DNA of 64,000 nt from Acetobacteraceae bacterium (GTDB lineage Bacteria; Pseudomonadota; Alphaproteobacteria; Acetobacterales; Acetobacteraceae), in contig JAVQZW010000005.1 in NCBI GenBank assembly GCA_033582875.1, positions 5,655 through 69,654 on the forward strand, written 5' to 3'. The position numbers and the translations under genes are program-made. Positions 9,741-27,928 of the stretch are shown here, piece by piece. Position 1 is the first letter of the stretch, and every line of letters begins with the position of its first letter. The notes beneath the pieces were generated by a model that searched no databases, was not told where the DNA came from, and was given only the letters and a program-made list of their open reading frames with translations.

Positions 9741-11334
9741 TCACGCCGCGTCGCGGCGGTTCTCGACCAGGGCGAGCACCTGCGCAAGCCGGTCGGCTTG
9801 TTCTGCCCTCTTGTCGGTGCGGATGCGGTTGACGCGCGGAAAGCGCAGCGCGACCCCCGAGCGGTGTCGGTTGGAGAGCTGTGCGGCGTCGAAGGCGATC
9901 TCCAGCACCAGCGACTTCTCGACCTCGCGCACAGGGCCGAAGCGGGCAATGGTGTGGTTGCGGATCCAGCGGTCGAGCCAGGCGAGCTCGGCGTCCGTGA
10001 AGCCGAAATAGGCCTTGCCGACGGGAACGAGCTCGCCGTCGTCGGTCCATACCCCAAAGGTGTAGTCCGAGTAGTAGGAGCTGCGCTTGCCGTGCCCGCG
10101 CTGGGCGTACATGAGCACGGCGTCGATCACGAAGGGGTCGCGCTTCCACTTGAACCACGGGCCCTTCGGCCGGCCGGGCACGTAGGCGGAGGCGCGGTGC
10201 TTCAGCATCAGCCCTTCTATGCCCGCCTCGCGCGCGCCGGCGCGAAGGGCGGCGAGCTCGTCCCAGGAACGGAACGGAACCAGCGGCGAGAGGTCCATCC
10301 GCCGCGGCGACGTCCTCGCCAGCCATGCCTCCAGCCGTGCGCGGCGATCGTCGAACGGCAGCGGCCTGAGGTCCTCCGCGCCCTCGAAGAGGATGTCGTA
10401 GAGGCGGATCATCGCGGGGAAATCACGCAGCATCCGCGCCGAGACCGACTTGCGGTTCAGCCTCTGCTGCAGATCGGAAAAGGGCGCGACCCGGCCATCG
10501 CGCACGACGAGGAGCTCGCCGTCCAAGACGGCGTGCAGCCCGCGCATCGCCTCGGCAACGTCCGGAAAGGCCGCCGTGATGTCCTCGCCCGCGCGGGAGA
10601 AGAGCGCGACCCCGCCCGGGCCGGCGCAGGCCTGCACGCGAATGCCGTCCCACTTCCACTCCGCGCGGTAGTCGGCCGGATCGAGGGCGCGGAGGTCCCC
10701 GTCCTCCAGCGGGTGGGCGAGCATGGGGGGGCGGAAGAGGGGCCGGTCGGTGCCGAGCGGCATCGGCCCCCGCCCCTCGAGCCAGGCGAAGAGGGCGAGG
10801 TAGGGCGGGGCGGAGGCCGACCAGGCCTCCTCGATCGCGTTCACGTCGACTCCGTAGTGTTCGGCGATCGCAACCTTCACCAGGCGGGCGGAGACGCCGA
10901 CGCGCACCCCGCCCGTGATCAGCTTGATCAGCGCGAAGCGCGCCGAGGCGTCGAGCGAGTTCGAGCCAGGCGGCGAGCAGGGCCGGAACCTCGGCGCGCG
11001 AGACGGTGGCGAGCGCCTCCACCACCTCGGCCAGAGTGGGCGGGGGCGCGGGTGGTGTGGACGGGGCCGGCCAGATCAGGCTCACCGTCTCGGCGAGGTC
11101 GCCGACGTAGTCGTAGGACCAGCCGAACAGAACGGGGTCGGTGCGTTCGGCGACGAGGGCGCGGATCAGCCCCGGCTTGGCAGCGGAAAACGAGAGTTCG
11201 CCCGAGATCGCGGCGAGCCCAAAGCCCCGCTCGGGGTCGGGGCGGGTCGCGATCCAGTCGCGAATCAGCGCGATCTTGGAGATGCGCGCGGGCGAGAAGA
11301 CGAGGCGTTCGAGGAGCTGGGCGAAGGGCGTCAT
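9741..11334 (-). CDS. ATP-dependent DNA ligase of the ligase-associated DNA damage response cluster (frameshift ~10960)
   Basis: N-terminal SYDYVGDLAET, motif I EWKWDG, LDGEL, EGLMLK, WFKWK, OB-fold LRFPR. Confidence 0.93.
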
Positions 11335-12383
11335 GCCGCCTCCTCCTCCACCGACGCGGTCACCCCCCCGCCCTCGTCCTCCTCGCCGCGACCGATCAGC
11401 GACAGCGCGCGGCCGCGGATGCCGCGCGAGGCAAGGGCGTGGATGAGCGCCTCCTCGCGTCCGTGGGTCACCCACACCTCGGCCGCGCCCGTCGCATCGG
11501 CCGTGGCGTTGAGTTCGTCCCAGTCGGCGTGGTCGGAGATGACGAGGGGCAGTTCCACGCCGCGCGACTTCGCGCGCTGGCGCACGCGCATCCAGCCTGA
11601 GGCGAGAGCGACCACAGGGTCATGAAGACGCCGCGCCCAGCGGTCCTGGATCGCGCCGGGCGGGGCGATGACGAGCGCGCCCCGAAGCAGGGGCTTGTCG
11701 GCCGCGGTGGCGGGGCGGAGGTCGCCGAACTCGTGGCCGAAGGCGGAATACACCTCGATCAGCGGGAACAAGGCGCCGTGGAGATAGATCGGGCGGTCGT
11801 AGCCGGCCCGGCGCAGAAGCGCGATCAGCCGCTGCGCTTTGCCGAGCGCATAGGCGCCGACCACGTGGGTGCGGTCGGAGAACACCGAGAGCGAGTGCAA
11901 CAGGCGTGCGATCTCGCCCTCCGCAGGCGGGTGGCGGAACACCGGCAGGGCGAAGGTCGCTTCGGTGACGAGAAGGTCGCAGGGCACGGGGGCGAAGGGC
12001 GCGCAGGTGGGCTGCGGGCGGGGGGAGTAGTCGCCCGTGATCACCACGCGACAGCCGCGCCATTCGAGCAGGGCCTGGGCCGAGCCGAGCACATGGCCGG
12101 CAGGGAAGAGGGTGATGCGGACGCCGCCGACCTCGAGCGTCTCGCCGTATCGGAGCGGCTGCTGCGAGAGCCCCGCCCGCCCTTCGCCGAGGCGGCGGGT
12201 CATCAGCGCCAGGGTCTCGGGGGTGGCGAGCACCGCGCCGTGGCCCGGCCGGGCGTGGTCGGCATGCGCGTGGGTGATGAGGGCGCGGGGCACGGCGCGC
12301 GCGGGGTCGATGAACAGGTCTGCCGGTTCGCAGTAGAGGCCCTCGGGCCGGACGGAGAGCCAAGTTTCGGGGTGCGGCGTCAT
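11331..12383 (-). CDS. Ligase-associated DNA damage response exonuclease (MBL/beta-CASP)
   Basis: ITHAHADH, AGHVLGSAQ, VTEATF, YALGKAQR, ASGWM, ISDHADW, VTHG. ATGA overlap with the ligase. Confidence 0.93.
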   Translation of the reverse strand: MTPHPETWLSVRPEGLYCEPADLFIDPARAVPRALITHAHADHARPGHGAVLATPETLALMTRRLGEGRAGLSQQPLRYGETLEVGGVRITLFPAGHVLGSAQALLEWRGCRVVITGDYSPRPQPTCAPFAPVPCDLLVTEATFALPVFRHPPAEGEIARLLHSLSVFSDRTHVVGAYALGKAQRLIALLRRAGYDRPIYLHGALFPLIEVYSAFGHEFGDLRPATAADKPLLRGALVIAPPGAIQDRWARRLHDPVVALASGWMRVRQRAKSRGVELPLVISDHADWDELNATADATGAAEVWVTHGREEALIHALASRGIRGRALSLIGRGEEDEGGGVTASVEEEAA

Positions 12384-12466
12384 CGAGCGGGGATGTGGGC
12401 CGCGGCAGCCGGGTGGTGAACTCCGCGGTGTGTGGCGGACGTGCCTTGCGCGACTACACTTGAAGC

Positions 12467-15106
12467 GTGACGCGCCCAGTCCCCGTCCCAAAGCCCACTC
12501 TCGCCCCCCTCCCCGCCCCGCTCGCGGCGTGGTTCGCGCGCCGCGGCTGGCAACCGCACCCGCACCAACGCGCCGTCCTCGCTGCCGTCCGTGCCAACCG
12601 CTCCGCCCTGCTCCTTGCGCCCACGGGCGCCGGCAAGACGCTGGCGGGGTTCCTCCCCACCCTCGCCGACATCGCCCAGACCCCCCGCGCCGGGCTGCAC
12701 ACCCTCTACGTCTCCCCTCTCAAGGCGCTCGCAGCCGACATCGCGCGCAACCTCGAACGCCCCATCGCCGAGGCAGGGCTCCCGATCTCGATCGACGTGC
12801 GGACAGGCGACACCGACCAAGCCTCGCGCAGGCGTCAGCGCGAGGCCCCGCCCAACATCCTGCTCACCACGCCGGAAAGCCTCGCCCTTCTCCTCTCCTT
12901 TCCGGACTCGGCGCGCCTGTTCGCCACCCTGCGCACCGTGGTGGTGGACGAGATCCATGCGCTGGTGGGGACGAAGCGGGGCGACCAGCTCGCGCTCTGC
13001 CTCGCCCGCCTCGGCACGCTCGCCCCCGCCGCCGTCCGCATCGGGCTTTCCGCCACTGCCCCCTTCCCGGACCGCCTGGCCGCATTTCTCTCGGCGGACG
13101 GGCGAGGCACGGGCGTGGAACTCATCCACGCCCCTCCCGGCGCGCAGCCGCAGATCGAGATCCGGCTGCCTGAGGGCCCTCTGCCCTGGTCTGGGCACAT
13201 GGGCTTGCTCGCGGCCGAGGAGATCTACCGCCTGATCCGCGCCCACCGCTCCACCATCGTCTTCGTCAACACCCGCGCCCAAGCCGAGCTCGTCTTTGCC
13301 GCGCTGTGGCGGCTGAACGATGACGCTCTGCCGATCGCGCTCCACCATGGGAGCTTGGCCCGCGACCAGAGGCTGAGGGTCGAGGCGGCGATGGCCTCGG
13401 GCAAGCTTCGCGCCGTCGTCGCCACCTCCTCGCTCGATCTCGGCATCGACTGGGGCGCGGTCGATCTCGTCGTGCAGGTTGGCGCGCCGAAGGGGGTCTC
13501 GCGCCTTTTGCAGCGCATCGGGCGGGCCAACCACCGCTGGGACGAGCCTTCGCGCGCCGTCCTCGTCCCCGCCAACCGTTTCGAGCTGCTCGAGTGCCTC
13601 TGCGCGCTCGATGGGGCGCGCGAGGGCGCGCTGGACGGCGACCCGCCGCCGCCAGGGGGCCTGGACGTGCTCGCCCAGCACGTGCTGGGCACGGTGTGCG
13701 CGGGGCCGATCCACGCGGACGACCTTTACGCCGAGGTGACCCGCGCGGCTCCCTACGCGAGCCTCTCGCGGAAGGACTTCGACGACGTGGTGCGCTTCGT
13801 CGAGGACGGGGGCTACGCGCTCGCGGCCTACGAGCGCTACCGGCGCCTCTTCCGCGACTCGGAGGGCAGGCTGCACCTCGCCGACGAGCGGGTGGCGCGG
13901 CGATGGCGGCTCAACATCGGAACCATCGTCGAGGCGCCGTTGCTGAAGGTGAAGCTCGGCCGCGGCTTCGGCGGCGCGGTGCTCGGCGAGATCGAGGAGT
14001 ATTTCGTCTCCCTCCTCAACCCCGGGGACACGTTCCTCTTCGCCGGCCGCCTCCTGCGCTTCGAGCGGCTGCGCGAGACCGTGGTGGAATGTTCGCCCGC
14101 GCAAGGCGACGACCCCAAGGTGCCGGCCTATGCCGGCGGCCGGCTTCCGCTGACCACCTTCCTCGCCGACCGCGTGCGGGCGCTGCTTCAGGACCGCAGC
14201 CGCTGGCAGGGTCTGCCTCCCGACGTCGCCGAGTGGCTCGAGCTGCAGCGCAAGCGCTCGCGCCTGCCCGGGCCGGCCGACCTGCTGGTCGAGACCTTCC
14301 CGCGTGGCGGACGGTGGTTCCTCGTCGCCTACTGTTTCGAAGGGCGGAACGCGCACCAGACGCTGGGCATGCTGGTCACGCGCCGGATGGAGCGGATGGG
14401 TTTCCGCCCGCTCGGCTTCGTCGCCACGGATTACGTCCTTGCCGTGTGGTCGGCCGAGGAGCCGCGCGACATCGCACGGCTCTTCGACGAGGACATGCTG
14501 GGCGAGGATCTCGAGGAGTGGATGGCCGAATCGTCGCTGCTCAAGCGAACCTTCCGCCACGTCGCGGTGATCGCGGGGCTTGTCGAGCGCAACCACCGGG
14601 GCGGAGCGAAGACCGGGCGGCAGGTGACGGTGAACACGGACCTGATCTACGACGTGCTGCGCAAGTACGAACCTGACCATGTGCTGCTGCGCGCCACCAG
14701 GGCCGATGCGGCGCGGGGGCTTGTCGATGTCGGCCGGGTGGCGCTGATGCTTCGCCGCGCACGGGGCCGGATCGTGCACATGGCGCTCTCCCGCGTCTCG
14801 CCTCTCGCCGTTCCCGTCCTGCTCGAGGTCGGCAAGGAGAGTGTTGCGACCGGCGAGGGTCAGGACGCGCTTCTCGCCGAGGCCGAAGCGGCCCAGTTGC
14901 TGGCCGAAGCGCGCGGCGAGGCCGAGCCCCCGGCCGCCGCGCCGCCCCCGCTGCGCGCGGAGCGCCCCGTGCATCCGGTGCATCGGGCCAACGTGGCGCG
15001 CGACCGCAAGCGCCGCCCCGGCGGCATCGCCCTCGGCACGCAGGGCCGGGCCACCTTGCGCACCATACGCTCCCGCCGCCAAGATCCGCTGCCTCTGTCC
15101 GAATGA
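12467..15106 (+). CDS. lhr: Ligase-associated DEXH-box helicase (Lhr-core)
   Basis: APTGAGKT, SPLKAL, TTPES, DEIH, GLSAT, HHGSL, SSLDLGID, QRIGRANH, NIGTI. Confidence 0.93.
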   Translation: MTRPVPVPKPTLAPLPAPLAAWFARRGWQPHPHQRAVLAAVRANRSALLLAPTGAGKTLAGFLPTLADIAQTPRAGLHTLYVSPLKALAADIARNLERPIAEAGLPISIDVRTGDTDQASRRRQREAPPNILLTTPESLALLLSFPDSARLFATLRTVVVDEIHALVGTKRGDQLALCLARLGTLAPAAVRIGLSATAPFPDRLAAFLSADGRGTGVELIHAPPGAQPQIEIRLPEGPLPWSGHMGLLAAEEIYRLIRAHRSTIVFVNTRAQAELVFAALWRLNDDALPIALHHGSLARDQRLRVEAAMASGKLRAVVATSSLDLGIDWGAVDLVVQVGAPKGVSRLLQRIGRANHRWDEPSRAVLVPANRFELLECLCALDGAREGALDGDPPPPGGLDVLAQHVLGTVCAGPIHADDLYAEVTRAAPYASLSRKDFDDVVRFVEDGGYALAAYERYRRLFRDSEGRLHLADERVARRWRLNIGTIVEAPLLKVKLGRGFGGAVLGEIEEYFVSLLNPGDTFLFAGRLLRFERLRETVVECSPAQGDDPKVPAYAGGRLPLTTFLADRVRALLQDRSRWQGLPPDVAEWLELQRKRSRLPGPADLLVETFPRGGRWFLVAYCFEGRNAHQTLGMLVTRRMERMGFRPLGFVATDYVLAVWSAEEPRDIARLFDEDMLGEDLEEWMAESSLLKRTFRHVAVIAGLVERNHRGGAKTGRQVTVNTDLIYDVLRKYEPDHVLLRATRADAARGLVDVGRVALMLRRARGRIVHMALSRVSPLAVPVLLEVGKESVATGEGQDALLAEAEAAQLLAEARGEAEPPAAAPPPLRAERPVHPVHRANVARDRKRRPGGIALGTQGRATLRTIRSRRQDPLPLSE

Positions 15107-15786
15107 CCGCCGCGCCGCTCCATCTTCTCGGGGAGCGCCTGATGCTCGACCCCTCAGGCGCGCTGTGGTGGCCGGCGCGCCGGCTGCTCGCGGTGGCCGA
15201 CCTTCACCTCGAGAAGGGGTCGGCTCTCGCCGCGCGGGGGGCGCTCGTTCCCCCCTACAATTCCCGCGCAACTCTCGAGCGGCTCACGCGCCTCGTTCGT
15301 CTCTATCGCCCCGAGCGTCTTCTGCTCCTCGGCGACTCCTTTCACGACGGGAAGGGAGCAGGCCGGCTCGGCGCGGCGGAAAGGGAGGCGCTCGCAGCTC
15401 TCGCGCGGCTTACCGCCATCGTCTGGCTCGCGGGCAACCACGATCCGGGAGAGGCGGAGGAGTGGCGCGAGACGCCTCTGATCTTCCGCCATGTCCCGCG
15501 CGGCGAGACGGGTGAGATCGCGGGGCACCTGCATCCGAAGGCGGCGGTGTCGATCCGCGGGACCTGGGTCGCGCGCGCCTGCTTCGTCGCCGACAGCCGG
15601 CGGCTCCTTTTGCCCGCCTTCGGCGCCTACACGGGGGGGCTTGATGTGCGCGACCCTGCCATCCGGCTCCTTTTCCCGCGCGGCGGGCGGGTGTTCCTGG
15701 TCGGCAAGGACCGGCTGTTCAGTTTTCCGTTGGCCGCCGTCGGCCCGCTTTCCGAAGCCCAGCCCAGGGCCATGTCAGGCGCGTGA
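15103..15786 (+). CDS. pdeM: Ligase-associated metallophosphoesterase/endonuclease PdeM
   Basis: VADLHLEKG, LGDSFHD, GNHD, GHLHP, LPAFGAYTGGL. ATGA overlap with lhr. Confidence 0.92.
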   Translation: MTAAPLHLLGERLMLDPSGALWWPARRLLAVADLHLEKGSALAARGALVPPYNSRATLERLTRLVRLYRPERLLLLGDSFHDGKGAGRLGAAEREALAALARLTAIVWLAGNHDPGEAEEWRETPLIFRHVPRGETGEIAGHLHPKAAVSIRGTWVARACFVADSRRLLLPAFGAYTGGLDVRDPAIRLLFPRGGRVFLVGKDRLFSFPLAAVGPLSEAQPRAMSGA

Positions 15787-17240
15787 GCAACGCCGCCCCA
15801 GCGCCCGTCCTCCTTTGGTTCCGCCAAGACCTGCGTCTCGCCGACAACCCGACGGTGCGAGCCGCGGTCGAGACCGGCCGGCCGGTGATCCCGGTCTTCG
15901 TGCTCGATCGCGAGAGCGCCGGGGCGTGGGCGCCGGGCGGGGCGTCGCTGTGGTGGCTGCACCACTCCCTTGCCTCGCTCGCGCGCTCGCTCGCGGCGCG
16001 CGGGTCGCGCCTGATCCTGCGCCGCGGGCGGTTCGAGGAGGTGATCCCTCGACTTGCCGCCGAGACGGGCGCGCGCCTCGTCCTCGCCAGCCGTCTCTAC
16101 GAGCCCTGGGCGCGGGAGGCCGATCGGCGCACGGCCGAGGCGCTGCGCCGCATGGGCGTGGAAATCCGCGGCTTCAACGCCTCGCTGCTGTTCGAGCCCT
16201 GGACGGTGCGGACGAAGACGGGCGGGCCCTACGGCGTCTACACCCCCTTCTCGCGCGCCTGCTTCGCTTTCGGCCCCCCGCCCAAGCCCCTGCCCGCCCC
16301 CGATCGTCTGCCCGCGCCGCAGACCTGGCCTGGTTCCGAGCTGCTCGCTGACTGGCGGCTCCTGCCGACCGCCCCCGACTGGGCCGGGGGGTTGCGCGAG
16401 ACGTGGACGCCCGGGGAAGAGGGCGCGGAAGCCCGGCTCGCTCGCTTCCTCGCGCGCGGCCTCGCCGCCTACGCCGAAACCCGGAACCGGCCCGATCTCG
16501 ACCTGACCTCGGGGCTCTCGCCGCACCTGCACTGGGGCGAGATCTCTCCCGCCCGCATCTGGCACGCGGTCGAGGCCTCCGCCCAGGCGCGGAGCCTCTC
16601 TGCCGAAACCTTCCTCAAGGAGTTGATCTGGCGGGAATTCTCCTACCACCTGCTGTGGCACCGGCCCGAGATGCCGGATCATCCGCTCAAGTCCGACTTC
16701 GCCCGCTTCCCCTGGCGCAGCGACCCTGCCGCTCTGAAGGCGTGGCAGCGCGGGCGCACCGGCTACCCCATCGTGGATGCCGGCATGCGCCAGCTTTGGC
16801 ATACGGGATGGATGCACAATCGGGTGCGGATGATCGTCGCCTCCTTCCTGGTCAAGCACCTCCTTTTGCCCTGGCAGGAGGGCGAGGCTTGGTTCTGGGA
16901 CACGCTGGTCGATGCCGATCTCGCCTCGAACAGCGCCTCGTGGCAATGGGTGGCCGGAAGCGGTGCCGACGCCGCGCCCTATTTCCGCATCTTCGCCCCC
17001 GTGACCCAAGGGCAGAAGTTCGACCCTCAAGGAGACTACGTGCGACGCTGGGTGCCTGAACTGGCGAAACTGCCGACGGACGTGATCCACGCGCCTTGGA
17101 CGGCGCCGGCAATCGTTCTCAGCGACGCAGACGTGGAGCTTGGGCGTACTTACCCTCGCCCGATCGTCGATCACGCCGCCGCCCGTGCCCGGGCGCTCGC
17201 CGCGCTTGCAACCATCACCCGCGACAAGGTTTCCGCCTGA
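15783..17240 (+). CDS. Deoxyribodipyrimidine (CPD) photolyase, likely class III/I
   Basis: WFRQDLRLADN, TSGLSPHLHWGEIS, ELIWREF, TGYPIVDAGMRQL, GWMHNRVRM, N..SWQW (Asn at the flavin N5 position). Confidence 0.95.
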   Translation: MSNAAPAPVLLWFRQDLRLADNPTVRAAVETGRPVIPVFVLDRESAGAWAPGGASLWWLHHSLASLARSLAARGSRLILRRGRFEEVIPRLAAETGARLVLASRLYEPWAREADRRTAEALRRMGVEIRGFNASLLFEPWTVRTKTGGPYGVYTPFSRACFAFGPPPKPLPAPDRLPAPQTWPGSELLADWRLLPTAPDWAGGLRETWTPGEEGAEARLARFLARGLAAYAETRNRPDLDLTSGLSPHLHWGEISPARIWHAVEASAQARSLSAETFLKELIWREFSYHLLWHRPEMPDHPLKSDFARFPWRSDPAALKAWQRGRTGYPIVDAGMRQLWHTGWMHNRVRMIVASFLVKHLLLPWQEGEAWFWDTLVDADLASNSASWQWVAGSGADAAPYFRIFAPVTQGQKFDPQGDYVRRWVPELAKLPTDVIHAPWTAPAIVLSDADVELGRTYPRPIVDHAAARARALAALATITRDKVSA

Positions 17241-18566
17241 ATGCACGGCACGCTTTCCCCTCCGCAGCGCGAGCGGATCGCCGTCATCGGCGCCGGAATT
17301 GCAGGACTTTCGGCCGCCTGGCTGTTGCGAGACGTGCACGACGTGGTCCTTTACGAGGCCGAGCCTCGTTTGGGCGGCCACGCCGACACCCAGGAGGTCG
17401 AGGTCGCGGGCGAACCGGTCGCGGTCGACACCGGCTTCATCGTCTACAACGAGGTGAACTACCCAAACCTCGTCGCCCTCTTCTCTGCCCTCGGTGTCGC
17501 GACCGAGCCCTCGGACATGTCCTTCGCCGTGGCACGCCTGGATCGTGACTTCGAATACGCGGGCGGCAGTTTCGCCCAACTCTTCGCCGACCCCCGAAAC
17601 GCGGCTTCCCCGCGGTTTTGGGGAATGCTGCGCGACGTTCTCCGCTTTTACCGCCGGGCGCCGTCGGTTCTCTCTGCTGCTGACGACACGCTCACCTTAG
17701 GGGCGTATCTCGAGCGCGAGGGCTTCGGTGCTGCCTTCGTGCAGGACCACCTGTTGCCGATGGGGGCGGCGATTTGGTCGGCCTCCGTGGAGGGGATTCG
17801 GGACTTTCCCGCCCGCGCCTTCGTGCAATTTTTCCACAATCATGGGCTTCTGCGGCTTTCTGGCCGCCCGCGCTGGCGGACCGTGACGGGGGGCTCGCGC
17901 CGCTATGTCGCAAGGATCGCCGCTGCCCTAGGCGATCGGGTCCGGCTGGGTCGCCGCGTGGTTGCCCTGCGGCGAGACGAGACCTCGGTGTGGCTTTTGC
18001 GCGAGGGCGACGTTCCCGAACGCTTCGACCGTGTGGTCCTCGCCGTGCACGGCGACCAGGCGCTCGCCTTGCTCGACCCTGCGACCGAGGCCGAGACGCA
18101 GATCCTCTCCGCCGTTCGCTATCAGGAAAACCGCCTTGTCCTGCACACCGATCCCGCGCTGATGCCGAGGCGGCGCCGGGTGTGGTCGTCCTGGAACTAT
18201 CTCTCGGCCGGGGAGGCCGACGAAACGCGTGCCGTGTGCGTCAGCTACTGGATGAACCGTCTGCAGAACCTGAAGACCCGCCTGCCGCTGATTGCTTCGC
18301 TCAACCCCTTCCGCGACCCTAACCCAGCCTCCGTGCTGGTCGAGCGCGTCTATCGTCACCCGCAGTATGACCGCGCCATGCTTCAGGCGCAAAAGGCGCT
18401 GCCCGCCATTCAGGGGCGCGATCGCCTGCACTTCTGCGGCGCCTGGTGCGGCTATGGCTTCCACGAGGACGGCATCGCCTCGGCGATCCGGGTCGCCGAG
18501 GCGCTGGGCGCGCCCCCTCCTTGGCGCGCCACGATTGCCCCGGCCGGGGGCGAGACCGTGCGGTGA
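17241..18566 (+). CDS. FAD-dependent oxidoreductase (COG2907), UfaD/RSP_1091-like
   Basis: GAGIAG Rossmann motif, LGGHA, VDTGFIVYN..NYPN, GAWCGYGFHEDG. Adjacent to DUF1365 and a Cfa-like gene. Confidence 0.88.
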   Translation: MHGTLSPPQRERIAVIGAGIAGLSAAWLLRDVHDVVLYEAEPRLGGHADTQEVEVAGEPVAVDTGFIVYNEVNYPNLVALFSALGVATEPSDMSFAVARLDRDFEYAGGSFAQLFADPRNAASPRFWGMLRDVLRFYRRAPSVLSAADDTLTLGAYLEREGFGAAFVQDHLLPMGAAIWSASVEGIRDFPARAFVQFFHNHGLLRLSGRPRWRTVTGGSRRYVARIAAALGDRVRLGRRVVALRRDETSVWLLREGDVPERFDRVVLAVHGDQALALLDPATEAETQILSAVRYQENRLVLHTDPALMPRRRRVWSSWNYLSAGEADETRAVCVSYWMNRLQNLKTRLPLIASLNPFRDPNPASVLVERVYRHPQYDRAMLQAQKALPAIQGRDRLHFCGAWCGYGFHEDGIASAIRVAEALGAPPPWRATIAPAGGETVR

Positions 18567-19327
18567 CGGATGCCCCCGCCCACATCCTCTGGGCACGGGT
18601 GGTGCACGTGCGCCACCGCCCGTTCCGGCACCGGCTCGAATACCGCATCTGGTCGCTTCTGCTCGATCTTGATCGTGCCGAGGAGGCGGGCCGCGCCTCG
18701 CGGCTGTTTCGGGTCGAACGTCCAGGCCTCGTCTCCTTCCGCGCGGCCGACCACGGCGCGCGTGACGGCTCTCCGCTCCGGCCCTGGGTGGAGCGTCAAC
18801 TCGCCGCGCAGGGCGTTCCGCCGCCGGCCCGCATCCGCCTGCTCGCCCTCCCTCGCGTGTTCGGCTACGTGTTCAACCCGATCTCGCTGTTCCTCTGTTC
18901 GGACGCCGCCGGCCGCGACACGGCGGTCGTCTACGAGGTGAAGAACACCTTCGGCGACCAGCACGCCTATGTCGCGGCCCTCGCGGGCCAGGGGCCCCAT
19001 CGCCACGCCGCCGACAAGACCTTCCACGTCTCGCCCTTCATCGGCATGGACGCGCGCTACCGCTTCACCCTCTCCTTCAAGGGCGACCGCTTCGGGCTCG
19101 TGATCGACGAGACGGAAAGGGGCGAGCGGCTTCTCACCGCCTCCATGGTGGGACGGCTCGAGCCGATGACGGACGCCGCCCTGGCCCGCGCCCTCCTTCG
19201 CTTCCCCTTCGTGACGCTGAAGGTGATCGCCGGCATCCACTGGCACGCCCTGCGGCTGTGGCGGAAAGGGGCGCGCTACCATCGCTATCTGCCGCCGCCC
19301 GAGGTCGAACCCACGCCCGCCCGTTGA
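18563..19327 (+). CDS. DUF1365 protein, UfaO/RSP_1090-like
   Basis: HVRHRP, PRVFGYVFNPIS, YEVKNTFGDQH, KTFHVSPF, IHWHALRLWRKG. GTGA overlap with the upstream gene. Confidence 0.9.
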   Translation: MTDAPAHILWARVVHVRHRPFRHRLEYRIWSLLLDLDRAEEAGRASRLFRVERPGLVSFRAADHGARDGSPLRPWVERQLAAQGVPPPARIRLLALPRVFGYVFNPISLFLCSDAAGRDTAVVYEVKNTFGDQHAYVAALAGQGPHRHAADKTFHVSPFIGMDARYRFTLSFKGDRFGLVIDETERGERLLTASMVGRLEPMTDAALARALLRFPFVTLKVIAGIHWHALRLWRKGARYHRYLPPPEVEPTPAR

Positions 19328-20565: not shown

Positions 20566-20571
20566 CGTCCC

Positions 20572-21891
20572 ATGCCGCCGCCCCCGGGGCGTCTGCCGCG
20601 CCCAATTCTCGCCGTCTACGGGCTTGCCGCCTTTCCGCTCGCCATCCTCGGCCTGCCGCTGAACGTGTATCTGCCCGCGTTCTGGGGCGAGACGATGGGG
20701 CTTGGTTTTTCCACCGTCGGCGCGGTGCTGCTCGCCACGCGCCTGTTCGATGGCCTCACGGATCCGCTCGCCGGCGTACTGTCCGACCGCACGCGGTCCC
20801 GCTTCGGGCGCCGGCGGCCCTGGATCGCCGCCGGCGGCCTGATCGCGGCGCCGGCGGTGTGGCTTCTGTTCGTCCCGCCCGCAGGCGCCGGGCCGGTCCA
20901 CCTCCTCCTCTGCGCATCCTTTGTCTATCTCGGCTGGACGCTGATCAATGTGCCGCACTCGGCCTGGGGGGCCGAGCTTTCCGCCGACTACGACGAACGG
21001 GCGCGCATCACCGCTTGGCGCGAAGCGGCGACGCTTGCGGGCATTGTCGCCTCGGCGCTCGTGCCGGCTCTCGCGCCGGGCGGGATCGCCTCCGATCTGC
21101 GCACCCTCGCCCTGGTGACTCTCGCTCTTGCGGCTCCTGCCCTTGTCCTCCTGCTCGCGGTGGTGCCGGAACCGCCCCCACCTGTGCGCCGCGCCCCCCG
21201 TCGCCCGCTTCGCGAAACGATCTTGATTCTCTCCCGCAACCGCCCGTTCCTTAGGCTTCTCGCGGCCTGGATCGTCAACGGCGTCGCCAACGGGCTGCCG
21301 GCGGCCTTGTTCCTGCTCGTCGTCACGCACCTTTTGCGCGCCGAAGCGCAGGCCGGCGTGCTTCTGCTCGCCTATTTCCTCGCCGGCATCGCGGCCGTGC
21401 CGGTCTGGACCTGGATCGCCTCGCGCACCTCGAAGCACCGCGCGTGGTGCCTCGCCATGCTATGGGCGTCGGGGGTGTTCGCTTTCGTCCCCCTCCTCGG
21501 GCCTGGGGACTGGCCGGCCTTCCTGGTCATCTGCGTGCTGACAGGGGCGGCGCTCGGGGCCGATCTCGCTCTGCCGCCCGCCATCCAAGCGGACGTGATC
21601 GACCTCGACCACCTCGAAGGCGGTGTGCCGCGGGCTGGGCTCTTCTTCGCCGCGTGGTCGATGGCGCATAAGGGCGGCAATGCGCTTGCCGTGGGCATCG
21701 GCCTTCCTCTTCTGGAGGCGCTCGGCTTTCGGGTGACGGAAGGGGTGGCCGAGGGTCTCGGCGCGCTCGTTCTGCTCTACGCGACGACGCCGATTGCGCT
21801 GAAGCTCGGGGTTGTTGTCCTGATGTGGCGCTTCCCGCTGGACCGCGCGGCGCAGGGCGCGATCCGCGCTCGCCTCGAAGGCCGGGCGTGA
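20572..21891 (+). CDS. MFS transporter (GPH/MFS_2 sugar:cation symporter-like, RSP_1089-like)
   Basis: Multiple hydrophobic segments, DGLTDPLAGVLSDRTRSRFGRRRPW, WGAELS.DYDER, ADVID. Confidence 0.9.
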   Translation: MPPPPGRLPRPILAVYGLAAFPLAILGLPLNVYLPAFWGETMGLGFSTVGAVLLATRLFDGLTDPLAGVLSDRTRSRFGRRRPWIAAGGLIAAPAVWLLFVPPAGAGPVHLLLCASFVYLGWTLINVPHSAWGAELSADYDERARITAWREAATLAGIVASALVPALAPGGIASDLRTLALVTLALAAPALVLLLAVVPEPPPPVRRAPRRPLRETILILSRNRPFLRLLAAWIVNGVANGLPAALFLLVVTHLLRAEAQAGVLLLAYFLAGIAAVPVWTWIASRTSKHRAWCLAMLWASGVFAFVPLLGPGDWPAFLVICVLTGAALGADLALPPAIQADVIDLDHLEGGVPRAGLFFAAWSMAHKGGNALAVGIGLPLLEALGFRVTEGVAEGLGALVLLYATTPIALKLGVVVLMWRFPLDRAAQGAIRARLEGRA

Positions 21892-22607
21892 GGCTCGATC
21901 TACCGTCGCGCTTTGCGGGCATCCGCGTGGTCGGCGACGTGCACGGCGAGGCCGCGCCCTTCCGCGCCGCCGTGGAGGGAGCGCGGGCCGAGCGGCTCTT
22001 CGTTCTCCAGCTTGGCGACCTCACCGACTACGGCCCCGACTCCCCTGGCGTGCTCGCTCTGATGCTCGAGCTTCTCGAGCACGGCGAGGGGGTCGCGCTG
22101 CTCGGCAACCACGACCACAAGCTCGCCCGCGCGCTGGCCGGGCGCCCGGTACAGGTCGAGCCCGAGGGGCTGGGCCGCACGCTGGCGCAACTGGCCGTGC
22201 GGCCGGACCGCGAGGACCTGGTCGCGCGGACCCTGCAGGCGCTCGGCCGGGCGCCGCTTTGGCTTCTCTGGCGCGATTGCCTGTTCGTGCATGGCGGTTT
22301 CCACACCGACATGCTGACTCGCCCCTCGCCTGTCGGGGCTGAGGTCGGGCGGCCCGATGCGCTCGCCGCCCGCGCCCTCTTCGGGGAGACCGTGCGTGGC
22401 GAGGCGGATGCGCGCGGATTTCCCATCCGGCGCATCGACTGGGTGCACCGCATTCCGCCCGGCCTCACGGTCTATTGCGGACACGACAATCGTGGCATGC
22501 CCGATCGGCCTTATGTGATTGACGGCTGTCGCGGCGGGCGCGCGGTCTTCCTGGACACGGGAGCGGGCAAGGGGGGCGTGCTGACCTGGCTCGACCTTGC
22601 GGCCTGA
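21888..22607 (+). CDS. Calcineurin-like metallophosphoesterase (Pnkp phosphatase domain/PrpE/ApaH-like)
   Basis: VGDVHG, LGDLTDYGPDS, GNHDHKL, FVHGG, YCGHD, LDTGAGKGG.LT. GTGA overlap with the MFS gene. Confidence 0.85.
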   Translation: MRLDLPSRFAGIRVVGDVHGEAAPFRAAVEGARAERLFVLQLGDLTDYGPDSPGVLALMLELLEHGEGVALLGNHDHKLARALAGRPVQVEPEGLGRTLAQLAVRPDREDLVARTLQALGRAPLWLLWRDCLFVHGGFHTDMLTRPSPVGAEVGRPDALAARALFGETVRGEADARGFPIRRIDWVHRIPPGLTVYCGHDNRGMPDRPYVIDGCRGGRAVFLDTGAGKGGVLTWLDLAA

Positions 22608-22622
22608 TCGATCGGGGAACGC

Positions 22623-23159
22623 ATGCAACTCATCATCCTAGGGATTGCCGCGCTCCTTCTTCTCGCCGGTTGCGGAGGGGGCATGAAGGTCGAGAACTTC
22701 GCCGGGCGCACGCCCGAACTCAGGCTCGAGGAATATTTCGTCGGGAGGATCAAAGGCTCCGGCCTGTTCGAGGACCGCTTCGGCACGGTGCGGCGCACCT
22801 TCACGTTCGGCATGACCGGGCGGATGGACGGCAACACGCTGATCCTAGAGGAGGATTTCCTCTACAATGACGGCGAGCGGCAGCAGCGCGTCTGGCGCCT
22901 CACCCGCACCGGCGAAGGCGCTTGGGAGGGCCGCGCCGATGACGTGGTCGGCGTCGGCGTCGGCCGCGGCGCCGGCAATGCGTTCCAGCTTGCCTACACC
23001 TTGAAGCTGCCGGTGGGCGGTTCGGTGTGGGAGGTGCGGTTCGACGACTGGCTGTTCCGACTCGACGAGGAGACCGTGCTGAACCGGGCCAACGTGTATC
23101 GGTGGGGGATCTGGGTCGGGCAGGTCATCACGACGATGCGCAAGCTGCCCGAGGGCTGA
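22623..23159 (+). CDS. DUF3833 family lipoprotein (RSP_1088-like)
   Basis: Lipobox LLLAGC, LEEYF.G, EDFLY.DGE.Q.R.W, FDDW, VLNRA. Confidence 0.85.
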   Translation: MQLIILGIAALLLLAGCGGGMKVENFAGRTPELRLEEYFVGRIKGSGLFEDRFGTVRRTFTFGMTGRMDGNTLILEEDFLYNDGERQQRVWRLTRTGEGAWEGRADDVVGVGVGRGAGNAFQLAYTLKLPVGGSVWEVRFDDWLFRLDEETVLNRANVYRWGIWVGQVITTMRKLPEG

Positions 23160-23516: not shown

Positions 23517-23825
23517 CTAGCTTGCGGTTTCCAGCAGCAGAGGCTCGGCCCGCGCCGCACTTCGCTCGCGCGCGTAGGCTTGCAGGACCCGTTCGGGCGG
23601 GATGGTGCGCGCCACCTCGCCGCGCTTGTCGAAGAACTCCAGGACCAGAAGGCCCGCCTCAGGGTCGAAGCGCAACGACGGGTTCAGAAGCGGCGGCGGC
23701 AAGCCAGACACGGAGGCCGGGCCGCCGCGCGGCGGTGCGTCGATTCCGCCCGCCGGAGTTGGTCCGCTCCGCCATGCCGCGAGCGCTGATGCCGCTTCCA
23801 GGGCACTCGCACTCGATGCGATCAT
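23517..23825 (-). CDS. Small FlaG-like hypothetical protein
   Basis: GGAGG RBS before the ATG. LRFDPEAGLLVLEFFDKRGEVARTIPPERVL resembles the FlaG core (..GEVIRQIPPEE.L). Confidence 0.65.
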   Translation of the reverse strand: MIASSASALEAASALAAWRSGPTPAGGIDAPPRGGPASVSGLPPPLLNPSLRFDPEAGLLVLEFFDKRGEVARTIPPERVLQAYARERSAARAEPLLLETAS

Positions 23826-23984
23826 CGCTTGGCCCTCCTGCCGCGGCCGGCAACGCCTTCTTCGCTGCCGATCACGGCCGCTGTCCTTCGCAGGCGGCCC
23901 GCCGAGAGGGACCCACCCGATGGGCCGGAAGCCGCGCGCGAACCCACCTGCGAAGGCTCACAGCGCATCGTTAAACGAAGGTGG

Positions 23985-24000
23985 TTAACAGGAGGTTAAC
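23985..24000. promoter_or_regulatory. CtrA-binding box TTAA-N7-TTAAC
   Basis: TTAAcaggaggTTAAC matches on both strands, with an extra TTAA at 23971-23974. It lies about 160 bp upstream of the FlaG-like gene. Confidence 0.7.
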
Positions 24001-24009
24001 GCAGCGGGG

Positions 24010-24816
24010 CTAGCGCCGACCCGTCACCCGTCCCACGAGCGGAAAGTAGAGCGCGTAAGGAAGGACCCGCATCGTCTTCAGGATGGCGACGAAACGCCAC
24101 GGGAAGGCGACCTCGAACCGCCCGCGCGCCAGCCCTTCCGCGATCCGCTCCGCCGCCCGCTCCACCGGCATCAGGAACGGCATCGGGAAGTCGTTCTTGT
24201 CCGTCAGCGGCGTCTTCACGAACCCCGGGTTGACCAGGGTGATCATCACCCCCGCCCGGTCGAGGTCGAACTTCAGGCTCTCGCTCATCGCAATCAGCGC
24301 GGCCTTGGTCGCGCCATAGGCGATCGCGCGCGGCAGTCCGCGGTAGCCCGCGACGGACGACACAATGCCGATCTGGCCACACCGGCGCGCGATCATCGCC
24401 GGCATCACCGCGGCGAGCGCGTTTGCGGTCCCAAGCAGGTTCACCTTCACCTGCAGGGCGAAAGAGGCGAGGTCGAAACGCTCGGCACTGTCCGGCAGGT
24501 AGGTGCCGGCGTTCAGCACGGCGAGCGCGATCGGCCGCCCGGCCCGCCCCTCCACCTCCCGCACCGCTTGGGCCAAGGCCTCCGCCTCGGTCACGTCCGC
24601 CGGGGCGGGCAGGATCCGCCCGCTGGGGACTTCGCCCGCGAGCCGTGCCAGTTCCTCCGCCCGCCGCGCGGTGACCGCCACCGTCCAGCCGCGACGGACG
24701 AGCTCCACCGCCAGTTGCCGGCCGATCCCGGACGAGGCGCCCGTGATCCAAGCAAGGCCATCCTCGGGCCGCGCCGGTCTCGGCCGCTGGCCCAACCCAC
24801 CTCGCCCGTCAGCCAC
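24010..24816 (-). CDS. Short-chain dehydrogenase/reductase (RSP_1087-like)
   Basis: WITGASSGIG, LNAG, SSVAG, YGATK, PGFVKTPLTDKNDFPMPF. Confidence 0.9.
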   Translation of the reverse strand: MADGRGGLGQRPRPARPEDGLAWITGASSGIGRQLAVELVRRGWTVAVTARRAEELARLAGEVPSGRILPAPADVTEAEALAQAVREVEGRAGRPIALAVLNAGTYLPDSAERFDLASFALQVKVNLLGTANALAAVMPAMIARRCGQIGIVSSVAGYRGLPRAIAYGATKAALIAMSESLKFDLDRAGVMITLVNPGFVKTPLTDKNDFPMPFLMPVERAAERIAEGLARGRFEVAFPWRFVAILKTMRVLPYALYFPLVGRVTGRR

Positions 24817-24954
24817 GCCGCCACCTCGTCGCGATCATCGTGTCACGATCTCCCTCCCCTGTCTGTGCACCATGCCCTTGGCCGCGACGGCGTCGATCGC
24901 CGGATCCCTCACCGCGGCGGAACAAGTGTGGCGCAAGGTGAGGCGCAGCAGCCC

Positions 24955-26520
24955 TCACGCCGCGCGCTCTGCTGGAGGTGCGGCGCGCCGCGGTGCGACG
25001 CGGTCGAGGAACGCCGCGGCTTCGCTGCGCATCGCCGCCACCTTGGCGGGATCCATCCGGTCGAGCGTGCGGTACATCTGGGCCATGCGCGGATTGCCTT
25101 CGAAGCGCGCGCGGTGGCGGGCGAGGAAATCCCAGTAGAGCATGTTGAAGGGACAGGCGCCTTCCCCGGTCGTGCGCTCGACATCGTACCGGCAGCCCGT
25201 GCAGTAGTCGCTCATGCGCGCGATGTACTTGCCCGAGGCGGCGTAGGGCTTGGAGGCCATGATGCCGCCGTCGGCGTGGATCGCCATGCCGTGGGTGTTG
25301 GGCAGTTCCACCCACTCGAACGCGTCAGCGTAGACCACCATGTACCATTCGTTCACCTCCGTCGGGTCGACCCCGGCGAGCAGGGCGAAGTTGCCGGTCA
25401 CCATCAGGCGCTGGATGTGATGGGCGTAGGCGAGCTCGTGCGTCTGGCGCACCACCGAGTCGATGCACGCCATGCCGGACTGGCCGGTCCAGTAGAACGC
25501 GGGCAGGGAACGATCCGCTGCCAGCACGTTCAACGTCTTGTAGCGCGGCATCGCCAGCCAGTAGAGGCCGCGCACATACTCGCGCCAGCCGAGGATCTGG
25601 CGGATGAAGCCCTCGACCGCATTCAAGGGTGCCCGGCCGGCGCGCCAGGCGGCCTCGGCCCGGCGGCACACCTCGCCGGGCAGCAGAAGCCCCAGGTTGA
25701 GCGAGGTCGACAAGAGCGAGTGGAACAGGGTCGCCTCGCCGCGCGCCATCGCGTCCTGGTAGTCGCCGAAGCACGCGAGGCGTTCGGCGATGAAGCGCTC
25801 GAGCGCGGCCTCCGCCTCGCGCGCCGTCACCGGCCAGGCGAAGGTGTCGATCCGGCCCCAGTGAGCCGGGAAACGCTCCGCCACCAGAGCCATCACCTCG
25901 CGGGTGATCGCATCGGGTTGTGAACGATACGGTGCGGGAACAGCGAGGTCGCGCGGGAGACGCTTGCGGTTCTCGGCATCGAAGTTCCAACGCCCGCCGG
26001 CGGGCTCGTCGCCCTCCATCAGGATGCCGGTGCGGCGGCGCATCTCGCGGTAGAAGAACTCCATGCGCAGGCTGCGCCGCCCCTTCGCCCAGGCCCGGAA
26101 CCAGTCGAGCGGGCAAAGGAAGCGCCCGTCCTCGCGGATCTCGACCGGCACCCCCGTCCGCTCCTCCCAGCCGCGCATGTCCTCGAGCACGCGCCACTCG
26201 CCCGGATGGGTGGCGATGATCCGCGCTGGGCGATGGCGTTCGACCGCGCGGGCCACCTCGCCGGCGAGCGTGCCGGTGTTGGCCGGATCGTCGAGCCGAA
26301 CGTAATCCACCCGCACACCGCGCGAGGCGAGGGCGCGGGCGAAATGGCGCATGGCGGAAAGAACGAGCACGATCTTCTGCGGGTGGTGGCGCACATAAGT
26401 GCACTCGCCCATCACCTCCGCCATCAGCACGACGTCGCGCCCAGGGTCGAGCCCCGCGAGCGAGGCGATGCTGCGCGAGCACTGGTCGCCGAGCACGACC
26501 CGGAGCGCGCCGCCCGCCAT
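24955..26520 (-). CDS. FeS-BCP cryptochrome/(6-4) photolyase (PhrB/CryB family)
   Basis: LGDQ, HHPQKI, WNFDAENRK, YAHHIQRLM.TGNF, SKPYAASG, Fe-S cysteines GMAC / DYCTGC / CPF. Confidence 0.93.
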   Translation of the reverse strand: MAGGALRVVLGDQCSRSIASLAGLDPGRDVVLMAEVMGECTYVRHHPQKIVLVLSAMRHFARALASRGVRVDYVRLDDPANTGTLAGEVARAVERHRPARIIATHPGEWRVLEDMRGWEERTGVPVEIREDGRFLCPLDWFRAWAKGRRSLRMEFFYREMRRRTGILMEGDEPAGGRWNFDAENRKRLPRDLAVPAPYRSQPDAITREVMALVAERFPAHWGRIDTFAWPVTAREAEAALERFIAERLACFGDYQDAMARGEATLFHSLLSTSLNLGLLLPGEVCRRAEAAWRAGRAPLNAVEGFIRQILGWREYVRGLYWLAMPRYKTLNVLAADRSLPAFYWTGQSGMACIDSVVRQTHELAYAHHIQRLMVTGNFALLAGVDPTEVNEWYMVVYADAFEWVELPNTHGMAIHADGGIMASKPYAASGKYIARMSDYCTGCRYDVERTTGEGACPFNMLYWDFLARHRARFEGNPRMAQMYRTLDRMDPAKVAAMRSEAAAFLDRVAPRRAAPPAERAA

Positions 26521-26555
26521 CTCCGCCACGCTCGCCGCCCCCTGCGCGCCTGCCG

Positions 26556-27203
26556 TCAGCTCCGCACGTAGCGGATGGTCGAGCCGTCCTCGCCGGTGAA
26601 GAGCAGCCCCGACCAGACGCCCTCAGCGTCGTACCAGATGTCGAGGGTGAGATCGCCGCTGACCCGGAAGCGCCGCGCCGGGCGCATCGCCGCGCCGACC
26701 GGAACGATCTCCTCCTCCACGGGCTCGATCCGGGTGGAGAGGAGCCGCCCGCCCTGGGTGTCGATCACCGGCGAGCGGAGGAAGCGCGCGTGCCAGTACG
26801 AGGTTGAGGTGGCGTCACGCGGGGCGCGGTAGGCGCCGGACTGCGAGCCCTCGACCTCGATCGCGCCCGCAACCGCCCGCGCGCGCACCCAGTAGGGCCG
26901 GCCGTTGCGGTCGGTTTCGCTGTCGATGGCAAGGAGGCGGTCCCGCTCCCAGACCTCCGTGTTGCGATGCCGGTAGCGGTAGGCGACGAGGCCGAGGAAC
27001 CGCACCGCGAGGTCGATCGCGATCCGCACCTCCACCCGCTCGGCCTGCGGCGTGAACTCGAGCACATGCGTGCCGATCGGGGCATCGTTGCGCATGACCC
27101 GGAAAGCGAGCCGGTTGCCGGGCGGAACGGCACCCCAGGACGGGATGGCCGGAAACGGAGCGAAGGCGGGAAGGGCGAGAAGAAGCGGGCGTCGTCCGAT
27201 CAT
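26556..27203 (-). CDS. Exported protein, DUF6134-like, twin-Arg signal
   Basis: MIGRRPLLL signal, IGTH, YRYRH...E.W, TSYW, IWYD..G.W..L.F..DGS.I.Y. ATGA overlap with the upstream SDR. Confidence 0.7.
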   Translation of the reverse strand: MIGRRPLLLALPAFAPFPAIPSWGAVPPGNRLAFRVMRNDAPIGTHVLEFTPQAERVEVRIAIDLAVRFLGLVAYRYRHRNTEVWERDRLLAIDSETDRNGRPYWVRARAVAGAIEVEGSQSGAYRAPRDATSTSYWHARFLRSPVIDTQGGRLLSTRIEPVEEEIVPVGAAMRPARRFRVSGDLTLDIWYDAEGVWSGLLFTGEDGSTIRYVRS

Positions 27204-27928
27204 GACTTGGTCCTCACCGTGGAGCGGCCACCGTCGACCGCGAACACCTGGCCGGTGATCCACGACGCCTCGGGCGAGAGGAGGAAGGCGGCGAGCGCAG
27301 CGGCATCCTCCGCCTCGCCGAGCCGGGGAATGGGGTGCTGGGCGGCGATCGCCTTCGCGAGCGCGTCGTTCTCGGTCAAGGGCTTGGCCATGCCGGTGCG
27401 GGTCAGCGAGGGGGCGATCGCATTCACCCGCACCTGGGGGGCGAGTTCGGCGGCGAGCGCCACCGCAAGCCCCTCGACCGCCGCCTTCACCGGCCCGATG
27501 ACGGTGTGATTGGCGAAACCGGCCCGCGCGGCGACGGAGCCGAACAGCACCACCGCCCCCTCGCCGGCCTTCAGCGCCGTCGCGGCGAGCGCGACCGCGC
27601 GCGCCGCGGCCGCCACGTTCAGCCGGTACGCAGCGAGGTGATCCTCGACGGTGGCGCGCGCGAGCGGCTTCAGCACGATCGAGCCCACGCAGAACGCAAG
27701 CCCGGCGAGCGTGCCTGAGCTTGCCGCCTCGGCCACGGCACGGGCGAGAGCCGTCTCGTCACAGACGTCGGCAACCGTCGCCGGAGCGCCGAGTTCCGCG
27801 GCAAGCGCGGCGAGACGGTCCGGATCGCGACCGGACAGATGCACGGCTCGCCCCTCCCGCACGAGCCGCCGCGCGAGAGCCCCGCCGATGCCTCCCGTCG
27901 CGCCGAACACCAGCACGCGCGCGGCCAT
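27200..27928 (-). CDS. SDR family oxidoreductase, atypical active site
   Basis: GATGGIG, VRVNAIAPSLT, WITGQ..VDGG. NHTVIGPVK stands where YxxxK is expected. Confidence 0.88.
   Translation of the reverse strand: MAARVLVFGATGGIGGALARRLVREGRAVHLSGRDPDRLAALAAELGAPATVADVCDETALARAVAEAASSGTLAGLAFCVGSIVLKPLARATVEDHLAAYRLNVAAAARAVALAATALKAGEGAVVLFGSVAARAGFANHTVIGPVKAAVEGLAVALAAELAPQVRVNAIAPSLTRTGMAKPLTENDALAKAIAAQHPIPRLGEAEDAAALAAFLLSPEASWITGQVFAVDGGRSTVRTKS

Follow-up and report, generated by a model that had tools for sequence, protein, structure and literature searches.

In Pseudomonas putida, an exonuclease, a ligase, a helicase of the Lhr-Core type and the metallophosphoesterase MPE (also called PdeM) are specified by a gene cluster for nucleic acid repair, Exo-Lig-Lhr-Core-MPE (excerpts of PMC7826289 and PMC10140301). 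This four-gene cluster occurs widely, and its biochemistry has been well studied. Its role and the damage that it targets were still given as not known in 2023 (excerpt of PMC10140301). The products of P. putida MPE are a mixture of 3'-PO4 and 3'-OH ends (excerpt of PMC7826289). A second described system concerns singlet oxygen: in Rhodobacter sphaeroides, ufaD-ufaO-ufaM, in which UfaO carries DUF1365, were shown to make furan fatty acids, and the core regulon of sigma-E and ChrR (extracytoplasmic function [ECF] group ECF11) includes phrA-cfaS (ufaM) and RSP1091-1087 (PMC7380195). The phrB operon PSPTO_1121-1114 is its counterpart in P. syringae, and the ECF11 sigma-E consensus is TGATCC-N16-CGTA (excerpt of PMC5507510). 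Here we describe a locus that carries genes of both kinds on contig JAVQZW010000005.1 of an Acetobacteraceae genome assembly, within a 64,000-nucleotide stretch that was analyzed as a whole (the window). In this locus the photolyase gene phr overlaps pdeM, and we found that the link of Lhr/PdeM to the photolyase and furan fatty acid (ufa) genes is real, conserved and directional. We consider it probable that the locus represents an ancient alphaproteobacterial light-damage neighborhood, which in the clade of Elioraea thermophila has become a fused operon with a shared function. We found no published account linking Lhr/PdeM with photolyase, and the word "photolyase" does not occur in the available text of PMC7826289 and PMC8301817; Ejaz & Shuman 2018/2019 and Dufour et al. 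2008 could bear on priority.

Placement through named relatives identified the host as a hot-spring Elioraea of the family Acetobacteraceae. The assembly that holds the window has 3.16 Mb in 12 contigs and is 76% complete, and the G+C content of the window is ∼71%. Its closest named relative is the cultured E. thermophila YIM 72297, with which the locus proteins are 87 to 94% identical and which shares the junctions of the locus. Families were assigned with Pfam and NCBIfam, junctions were taken from the sequence itself, and assignments were refined by searches against solved structures.

Results

Organization of the locus

An earlier reading of this DNA, made from the sequence only, had assigned functions to the genes at positions 9741 to 27928, and every one of these identities was upheld by Pfam and NCBIfam (Table 1). 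That reading had also described nine plus-strand genes (12467 to 23159) joined by overlaps or by gaps of 15 bp or less, which the sequence bore out at each junction. The pdeM stop and phr start share a 4-nucleotide (nt) GTGA overlap, and this GTG is the sole in-frame phr start within 15640 to 15840. The two modules that were said to be joined here are thus physically fused. Upstream, lhr and pdeM are linked by an ATGA overlap. Downstream, the TGA of phr abuts the ATG of the ufaD-like gene, which in turn overlaps the DUF1365 gene (GTGA); depending on the start chosen for the methylase gene, the next junction is a TTGA overlap or an 8-bp gap. The remaining junctions are a 6-bp gap between the methylase gene and the major facilitator superfamily (MFS) gene, a GTGA overlap between the MFS gene and a second metallophosphoesterase gene (mpe2), and a 15-bp gap between mpe2 and the DUF3833 gene.

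On either side of this string, the predicted arrangement likewise held. The exonuclease-ligase pair diverges across an 83-bp spacer, with the exonuclease start 83 bp from lhr and the ligase start (ATG at 11334) overlapping the exonuclease stop as ATGA. The converging operon of a short-chain dehydrogenase/reductase (SDR), a DUF6134 protein, an FeS-BCP photolyase and a second SDR agreed with both the Pfam matches and the start and stop positions, and the DUF6134 start lies in an ATGA overlap with the stop of the upstream SDR gene.

Conservation of the pdeM-phr adjacency

Of 38 loci from relatives, 27 have phr downstream of pdeM in the same orientation (26 of 32 from Acetobacteraceae and 1 of 6 from elsewhere); among the other 11, some are truncated by contig ends. 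The stop of pdeM overlaps the start of phr in eight of the 38 loci, by 4 nt in seven and by 1 nt in the other. Seven of these overlapping cases are from Acetobacteraceae and represent five genera, and the eighth is from another family. Approximately 10 further loci have gaps of less than 100 nt.

We then compared a class-wide sample of 300 other genomes spread evenly over families. A search for PdeM gave matches in 104, of which 100 with full-length hits were compared; the phr figures for this sample are those among the photolyase matches listed, with 41 weaker matches lying outside. In 18 of the 100, pdeM had a same-strand phr gene 400 bp or less downstream, and in 6 more this distance was 0.9 to 3.5 kb, giving a total of 24. 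These 24 genomes represent at least 19 families, and all have the same order and strand. No phr was found in any other arrangement within 18 kb of pdeM in the 100 genomes, and the adjacency was kept in class-level loci at 42 to 54% PdeM identity. The complete string lhr-pdeM-phr-ufaD-ufaO-ufaM was present in 11 of 20 class-level loci, mostly followed by the MFS and DUF3833 genes, and several of these also had a convergent SDR gene plus FeS-BCP and/or DUF6134. An SDR gene convergent to the ufa string recurs in many other families. Because the full string is found in many families, the 18-kb arrangement is an old neighborhood and not an invention of Elioraea. The pdeM-phr adjacency is lineage restricted.

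The sequence-only reading had named a lack of pdeM-phr adjacency in related genomes as the mark of chance juxtaposition. The adjacency turned out to be widespread in relatives, with constant orientation, and no such lack is seen. A purely historical or chance arrangement without functional meaning would account for the PdeM-positive genomes without the adjacency (76 of 100 in the class sample, among the matches listed, and 70 of 71 in a phylum sample) and for the fact that related genomes are non-independent observations. It would not account for the single order and strand shared by all 24 class-sample cases across their families, for the persistence of the arrangement at such low PdeM identity, or for the lack of any other orientation within 18 kb (again among the matches listed). 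We regard chance as highly improbable, and it is already strongly disfavored.

Another explanation is that the partner of photolyase is PdeM alone, which would cleave single-stranded nucleic acid where photoproducts occur or close to them, or would have RNA as its substrate, with Lhr merely traveling with PdeM. Consistent with this, lhr is missing from the 7 kb upstream of 5 of the 20 class-level pdeM-phr loci, and phr is always the immediate neighbor of pdeM and never of lhr. Against it, lhr precedes pdeM in most adjacency loci, MPE adjoins bacterial lhr in 276 of 319 genomes surveyed (excerpt of PMC8301817), and the order lhr-pdeM-phr by itself puts phr beside pdeM. We therefore think it quite unlikely that PdeM acts as the sole partner and retain the reading in which the entire neighborhood has a shared function.

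Some pdeM-phr loci had other neighbors. In two loci of one family (L156 and L158 of f52), the genes that come after pdeM-phr, in the same orientation, encode an Acyl_transf_3 protein, Ku and a full LigD, and in two loci of another (L164 and L165 of f150), a PhzF-like gene lies directly before pdeM-phr on the same strand, in the place of lhr. Translation of the pdeM-phr gap in L052 suggested a fasciclin-like open reading frame (ORF) on the opposite strand.

Regulatory signals

The earlier reading had cited the RpoE-ChrR regulon of R. sphaeroides, which does not carry over to this genome: ChrR (TIGR02451) was not found in three Elioraea genomes (G000, 76% complete; G002, 98%; G004, 100%), and two forms of the ECF11 motif gave no match in the window. 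Since 9 of the 61 Acetobacteraceae genomes sampled had a ChrR score above the cut-off, this absence applies only to the Elioraea genomes searched. The class-level loci gave a different picture. The motif TGATCC-N16-CGTA was located in the pdeM-phr spacer, 39 to 110 nt upstream of phr; 7 of the 20 loci had an exact match and another 5 had a single mismatch. The background of exact matches was 12 in the 725 kb of these 20 loci, counting both strands. ChrR was above the cut-off in all five motif-bearing genomes tested. Together, the motif and ChrR indicate that in those families a separate singlet-oxygen promoter, immediately behind pdeM, serves phr-ufa. Further exact matches were found away from phr in L152, L153 and L169 and may be extra regulon promoters.

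In the window, a simple scan of positions 9500 to 28300 revealed no sigma-70-like promoter, and the terminator-like hairpins in the same interval (9, compared with 7.4 ± 3.1 in shuffled sequences) gave no signal. Rfam returned no match at gathering score across the whole window. We aligned the exo/lhr spacer of four genomes of the E. thermophila clade and found the invariant blocks GATGTGGGCC, GAAC, GTGTGGCGGA and CTACACT, the last of which lies 5 nt before the GTG start of lhr. These blocks may represent a putative promoter or operator, although they matched no nameable promoter type, and the lhr transcript would perhaps be leaderless. Neither a sigma-70 nor an ECF11 match was found in the 83-bp spacer. 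A common motif upstream of lhr was not found across genera, where the upstream gene and sequence are too divergent. One candidate was rejected: TGATCCTGCC..GCCTA, which occurs 145 to 260 nt upstream of phr in many loci, is inside pdeM, and by its position we judged it to be coding and not a promoter.

These data also bear on the possibility that the locus consists of two adjacent, independent transcription units. The phr-ufa promoter would now be inside the 3' end of pdeM and be served by another sigma factor or an activator, the overlap would reflect compaction, and lhr-pdeM would be under separate control, with DNA damage as one possible signal. Precedents exist, as 12 of the 20 class-level loci, which belong to other families, have a sigma-E promoter just upstream of phr, the phrB promoter of P. 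syringae lies within the upstream gene (excerpt of PMC5507510), and the phr-ufa genes of the E. tepidiphila clade, which are preceded by opposite-strand genes, must start alone. However, no ECF11 or sigma-70-like promoter was found in the window, there was no terminator-like signal above chance, and overlaps of 4 or 1 nt, as found in 8 of the 38 loci, are typical of co-translated operon genes. We consider independent units somewhat unlikely for this locus. For the clade of the window, judged from gene spacing alone, a single nine-gene operon starting at the exo/lhr spacer is most likely and is the most economical reading.

The second metallophosphoesterase

The sequence-only reading had grouped mpe2 with the furan fatty acid genes. 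Its distribution revised this assignment, as it follows the phr and lhr-pdeM genes of Acetobacteraceae and not the ufa set. Of the 301 class-sample genomes, mpe2 was found in only four, namely, the host, the two other Acetobacteraceae sampled and one from a different family. Most genera of Acetobacteraceae have it immediately after phr (lhr-pdeM-phr-mpe2). We counted the neighborhoods of 80 named loci centered on mpe2: 38 had lhr/pdeM-phr-(ufa)-mpe2, 9 had lhr/pdeM-mpe2 with phr missing, 16 had phr-mpe2 with no pdeM upstream, 4 had mpe2 alone, and 13 were too short for a call. By this distribution, mpe2 is a putative Acetobacteraceae-specific partner of phr and lhr-pdeM. We also considered whether an ancestral lhr-pdeM-phr-mpe2 operon had gained the ufa genes by insertion. 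This idea is weakened by the full string without mpe2 in many other families, and loss of ufa from most Acetobacteraceae is at least as likely as insertion.

All motifs of the binuclear metal site of metallophosphoesterases were invariant in the 19 aligned mpe2 sequences. The best solved relative by profile was the phosphatase domain of Clostridium thermocellum Pnkp (4j6o; E value, 2e-19), which was also the top Foldseek match of the mpe2 model (TMq, 0.72; model pLDDT, 88); the next relative was lambda phosphatase (1g5b). The bacterial Pnkp family TIGR04075 matched in the phosphatase region only (5e-20; 71.3 bits compared with a cut-off of 750). The position of a Pnkp-like phosphatase beside PdeM and a ligase, given that MPE leaves 3'-PO4 ends (PMC7826289, in the part available), suggests an end-healing step, in which mpe2 by analogy would be a 3'-phosphatase that heals ends made by PdeM. 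Alternatively, mpe2 may be an Ap4A-hydrolase-like enzyme or a protein phosphatase.

Repair and photoprotection genes

Lhr has the Pfam domains DEAD, Helicase_C, WH_Lhr and DEAD_assoc and no Lhr C-terminal domain, and its best solved relative is 5v9x, which identifies the short Core form. PdeM matched P. putida MPE (6nvo) with an E value of 2.4e-21, and the equivalents of His81 and His113 and the metal motifs are kept. The ligase entry of the earlier reading required correction. Its C-terminal ORF (9741 to 10907; 616.5 bits) covers positions 144 to 525 of TIGR04120, and its N-terminal part covers positions 3 to 126 in another frame, the frameshift being one extra base near 10955 to 10965 relative to E. 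thermophila. The ORF is uninterrupted in all three close relatives (loci L031, L032 and L033). A type I phosphodiesterase/nucleotide pyrophosphatase gene on the plus strand (7483 to 9058) is also split between two frames, with profile positions 1 to 75 in ORF 7483 to 7938 and positions 158 to 315 in ORF 7715 to 9058. With this second apparent frameshift within 4 kb, an assembly indel is as likely as a pseudogene for the ligase.

In a search against solved structures, the cyclobutane pyrimidine dimer (CPD) photolyase was closest to 4u63 (E value, 2.1e-166), which we take to be the class III enzyme PhrA, and then to plant cryptochromes. The FeS-BCP protein matched 9hnk, 3zxs and 4dja with E values of 1e-184 to 1e-193 (3zxs, 9.6e-191; 4dja, 3.5e-184). 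Its N-terminal domain is of the DPRP type, it resembles PhrB/CryB over its full length, and it has four cysteines that align with those of Agrobacterium tumefaciens PhrB and R. sphaeroides CryB, which places it in the FeS-BCP (6-4) family; the four cysteines are presumably the ligands of the Fe-S cluster. The furan fatty acid gene set is encoded together in the order ufaD-ufaO-ufaM, with members of the flavin adenine dinucleotide (FAD)-dependent amine-oxidase-type, DUF1365 and CMAS families. The lipids that characterize this pathway are 11Me-12t-18:1, 11Me-10t,12t-18:2 and 9M5-FuFA.

Other features of the window

The coordinates of the locus are collected in Table 1. We corrected the earlier gene list by adding a conserved small minus-strand ORF, which sits in the 850-bp gap separating the converging operons. 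Beyond the first SDR gene of the converging operon, a 709-amino-acid protein encoded on the plus strand (28102 to 30231) has a SixA-like histidine phosphatase domain at its N terminus and a CHAD domain at its C terminus.

Table 1. Features of the repair and photoprotection locus, in positions of the window.
Feature	Position	Strand	Evidence or remark
ATP-dependent ligase, LigB type, "cisplatin damage response" family TIGR04120	9741..11334	-	Split by +1 frameshift
Ligase-associated exonuclease (metallo-beta-lactamase/beta-CASP)	11331..12383	-	TIGR04122, 434.3 bits vs cut-off of 325; ATG at 12383
Divergent exo/lhr spacer, 83 bp	12384..12466		Blocks conserved in E. thermophila clade
lhr, Lhr-Core type DExH helicase, 879 amino acids	12467..15106	+	TIGR04121, 1091.2 bits vs 850
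pdeM, PdeM/MPE single-strand DNA endonuclease	15103..15786	+	TIGR04123, 197.6 bits vs 150
phr, CPD photolyase	15783..17240	+	PF00875 and PF03441
UfaD-like FAD desaturase, amine-oxidase/COG2907 type	17241..18566	+	PF01593, 4e-26; PF13450
UfaO-like DUF1365 protein	18563..19327	+	PF07103, 1e-74
UfaM-like S-adenosylmethionine-dependent fatty-acyl methylase, CMAS family	19324 (TTG) or 19336 (ATG)..20565	+	PF02353, 6.9e-81
MFS_2 transporter	20572..21891	+	PF13347, 3.3e-79
mpe2, second metallophosphoesterase, Pnkp-phosphatase-like	21888..22607	+	PF00149
DUF3833 protein	22623..23159	+	PF12915, 2.9e-59
Small ORF, conserved	23517..23825	-	tblastn, 52-78% identity in Elioraea relatives; no Pfam match
SDR oxidoreductase, last enzyme gene of converging operon	24010..24816	-	PF00106, 1.1e-41
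FeS-BCP type (6-4) photolyase/CryB-like	24955..26529	-	PF04244, 4.6e-84
DUF6134 protein	26556..27203	-	PF19630, 6.4e-49; ATG at 27203
SDR oxidoreductase, first gene of converging operon	27200..27928	-	PF13561, 1.2e-45

Discussion

In the light-damage neighborhood that we favor, the Lhr-Core and PdeM genes would form the core, in most cases accompanied by the diverging exonuclease-ligase pair. Immediately downstream would lie the CPD photolyase, ufaD-ufaO-ufaM, MFS and DUF3833 genes, faced by a converging operon with SDR, (6-4)-type FeS-BCP photolyase and DUF6134 genes. Families with ChrR/sigma-E would keep, in the spacer that separates pdeM from phr, a distinct sigma-E promoter for phr-ufa. 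In the E. thermophila clade, where the ChrR/sigma-E system was not found, this spacer would have collapsed to the 4-nt overlap, and from the collapse and the ChrR searches the nine plus-strand genes are most likely one operon transcribed from the exo/lhr spacer. Cells would then co-produce enzymes for the light-dependent reversal of UV dimers, singlet-oxygen-quenching membrane lipids and the Lhr-Core/PdeM/Exo/ligase machinery, which would unwind, cut, trim and reseal lesions beyond the reach of photolyase reversal. The phosphatase mpe2 would plausibly strip the 3'-phosphates left by PdeM. What the data show directly are the identities of the genes, their junctions, the conserved synteny and where the promoter motifs occur; we infer that the genes are co-transcribed, what signal induces them and which lesions they handle. 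As a tentative possibility, Lhr-Core/PdeM/Exo/LigB may serve more widely in Alphaproteobacteria as a light-stress repair route for UV or photo-oxidative lesions outside the scope of photolyases, which is expressed, or read through, with the photolyase-furan-lipid operon, with mpe2 recruited for 3'-phosphate healing before sealing.

Several observations weigh against this scheme. Co-transcription is not general to the neighborhood, as the sigma-E families have their own phr promoter, and a promoter may lie inside pdeM in this locus. In the E. tepidiphila clade, genes for fasciclin, FMN_bind_2 (PaiB-like) and fasciclin lie on the opposite strand between pdeM and phr (L034:7700-9843, also L035 to L037 and L067), which makes pdeM-phr co-transcription impossible there. 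In the phylum sample, in which a few large families dominate, just 1 of the 71 PdeM-positive genomes showed the adjacency, and none of the 13 such genomes from outside the class did. Five of the 20 class-level loci (L154, L156, L158, L164 and L165) have no lhr within 7 kb, and Lhr is thus not a constant member. Within the window, the frame of the ligase is broken, with assembly error and pseudogene equally likely as the cause, and the mpe2 scores for Pnkp, PrpE and ApaH fell well short of the respective cut-offs. Finally, deletion of the full-length lhr of Mycobacterium smegmatis conferred sensitivity to crosslinkers and none to 254-nm UV in the dark, although expression of the gene was nonetheless UV induced (excerpt of PMC9841417). 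The architecture of that full-length Lhr differs from the Lhr-Core type found here.

Weighed together with the conserved order, we still find the shared light-damage function probable. The orientation-fixed link to photolyase provides a concrete, testable hypothesis for the repair cluster, namely, that it acts on UV or photo-oxidative damage. This link is present in about one-quarter of the PdeM-positive alphaproteobacteria sampled class-wide (among the matches listed), and in the Elioraea lineage the genes are fused; several species that bear it are in culture, including Elioraea thermophila, E. tepidiphila and Roseomonas. The neighborhood also offers a case of regulatory rewiring, with a sigma-E promoter where ChrR exists and an overlap where ChrR was not found, and mpe2 is a candidate end-healing phosphatase for the 3'-phosphate ends made by MPE.

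Compared with known systems, the photoprotection genes have close counterparts. Both photolyases have strong full-length likeness to their models, PhrB/CryB for the FeS-BCP protein and the 4u63 type for the CPD photolyase, and we noted no difference. The colinear D-O-M order is common to Elioraea and the described furan fatty acid pathway, a likeness drawn from families and order alone. The same families as in the sigma-E/ChrR regulon are present, including photolyase, a UfaD-type flavoprotein, DUF1365/UfaO, a CMAS methylase, a protein of DUF3833 size and an SDR. However, the Elioraea genes form one string joined to lhr-pdeM, without ChrR or a promoter motif having been found. The phosphatase domain of C. 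thermocellum Pnkp resembles mpe2 in sequence and structure, and the metal motifs are common to both. In contrast to Pnkp, mpe2 is a stand-alone protein of 239 amino acids with no kinase or ligase-like domains, and hence is no Pnkp, and it has a family-specific C-terminal DTGAGKGG motif. All four families of the P. putida Exo-Lig-Lhr-Core-MPE cluster (TIGR04120 to TIGR04123) are encoded here, with the PdeM histidines kept and Lhr in its short Core form. The Elioraea cluster differs from that of P. putida in having a frameshifted ligase in the present assembly and in running directly into the photolyase and ufa genes.

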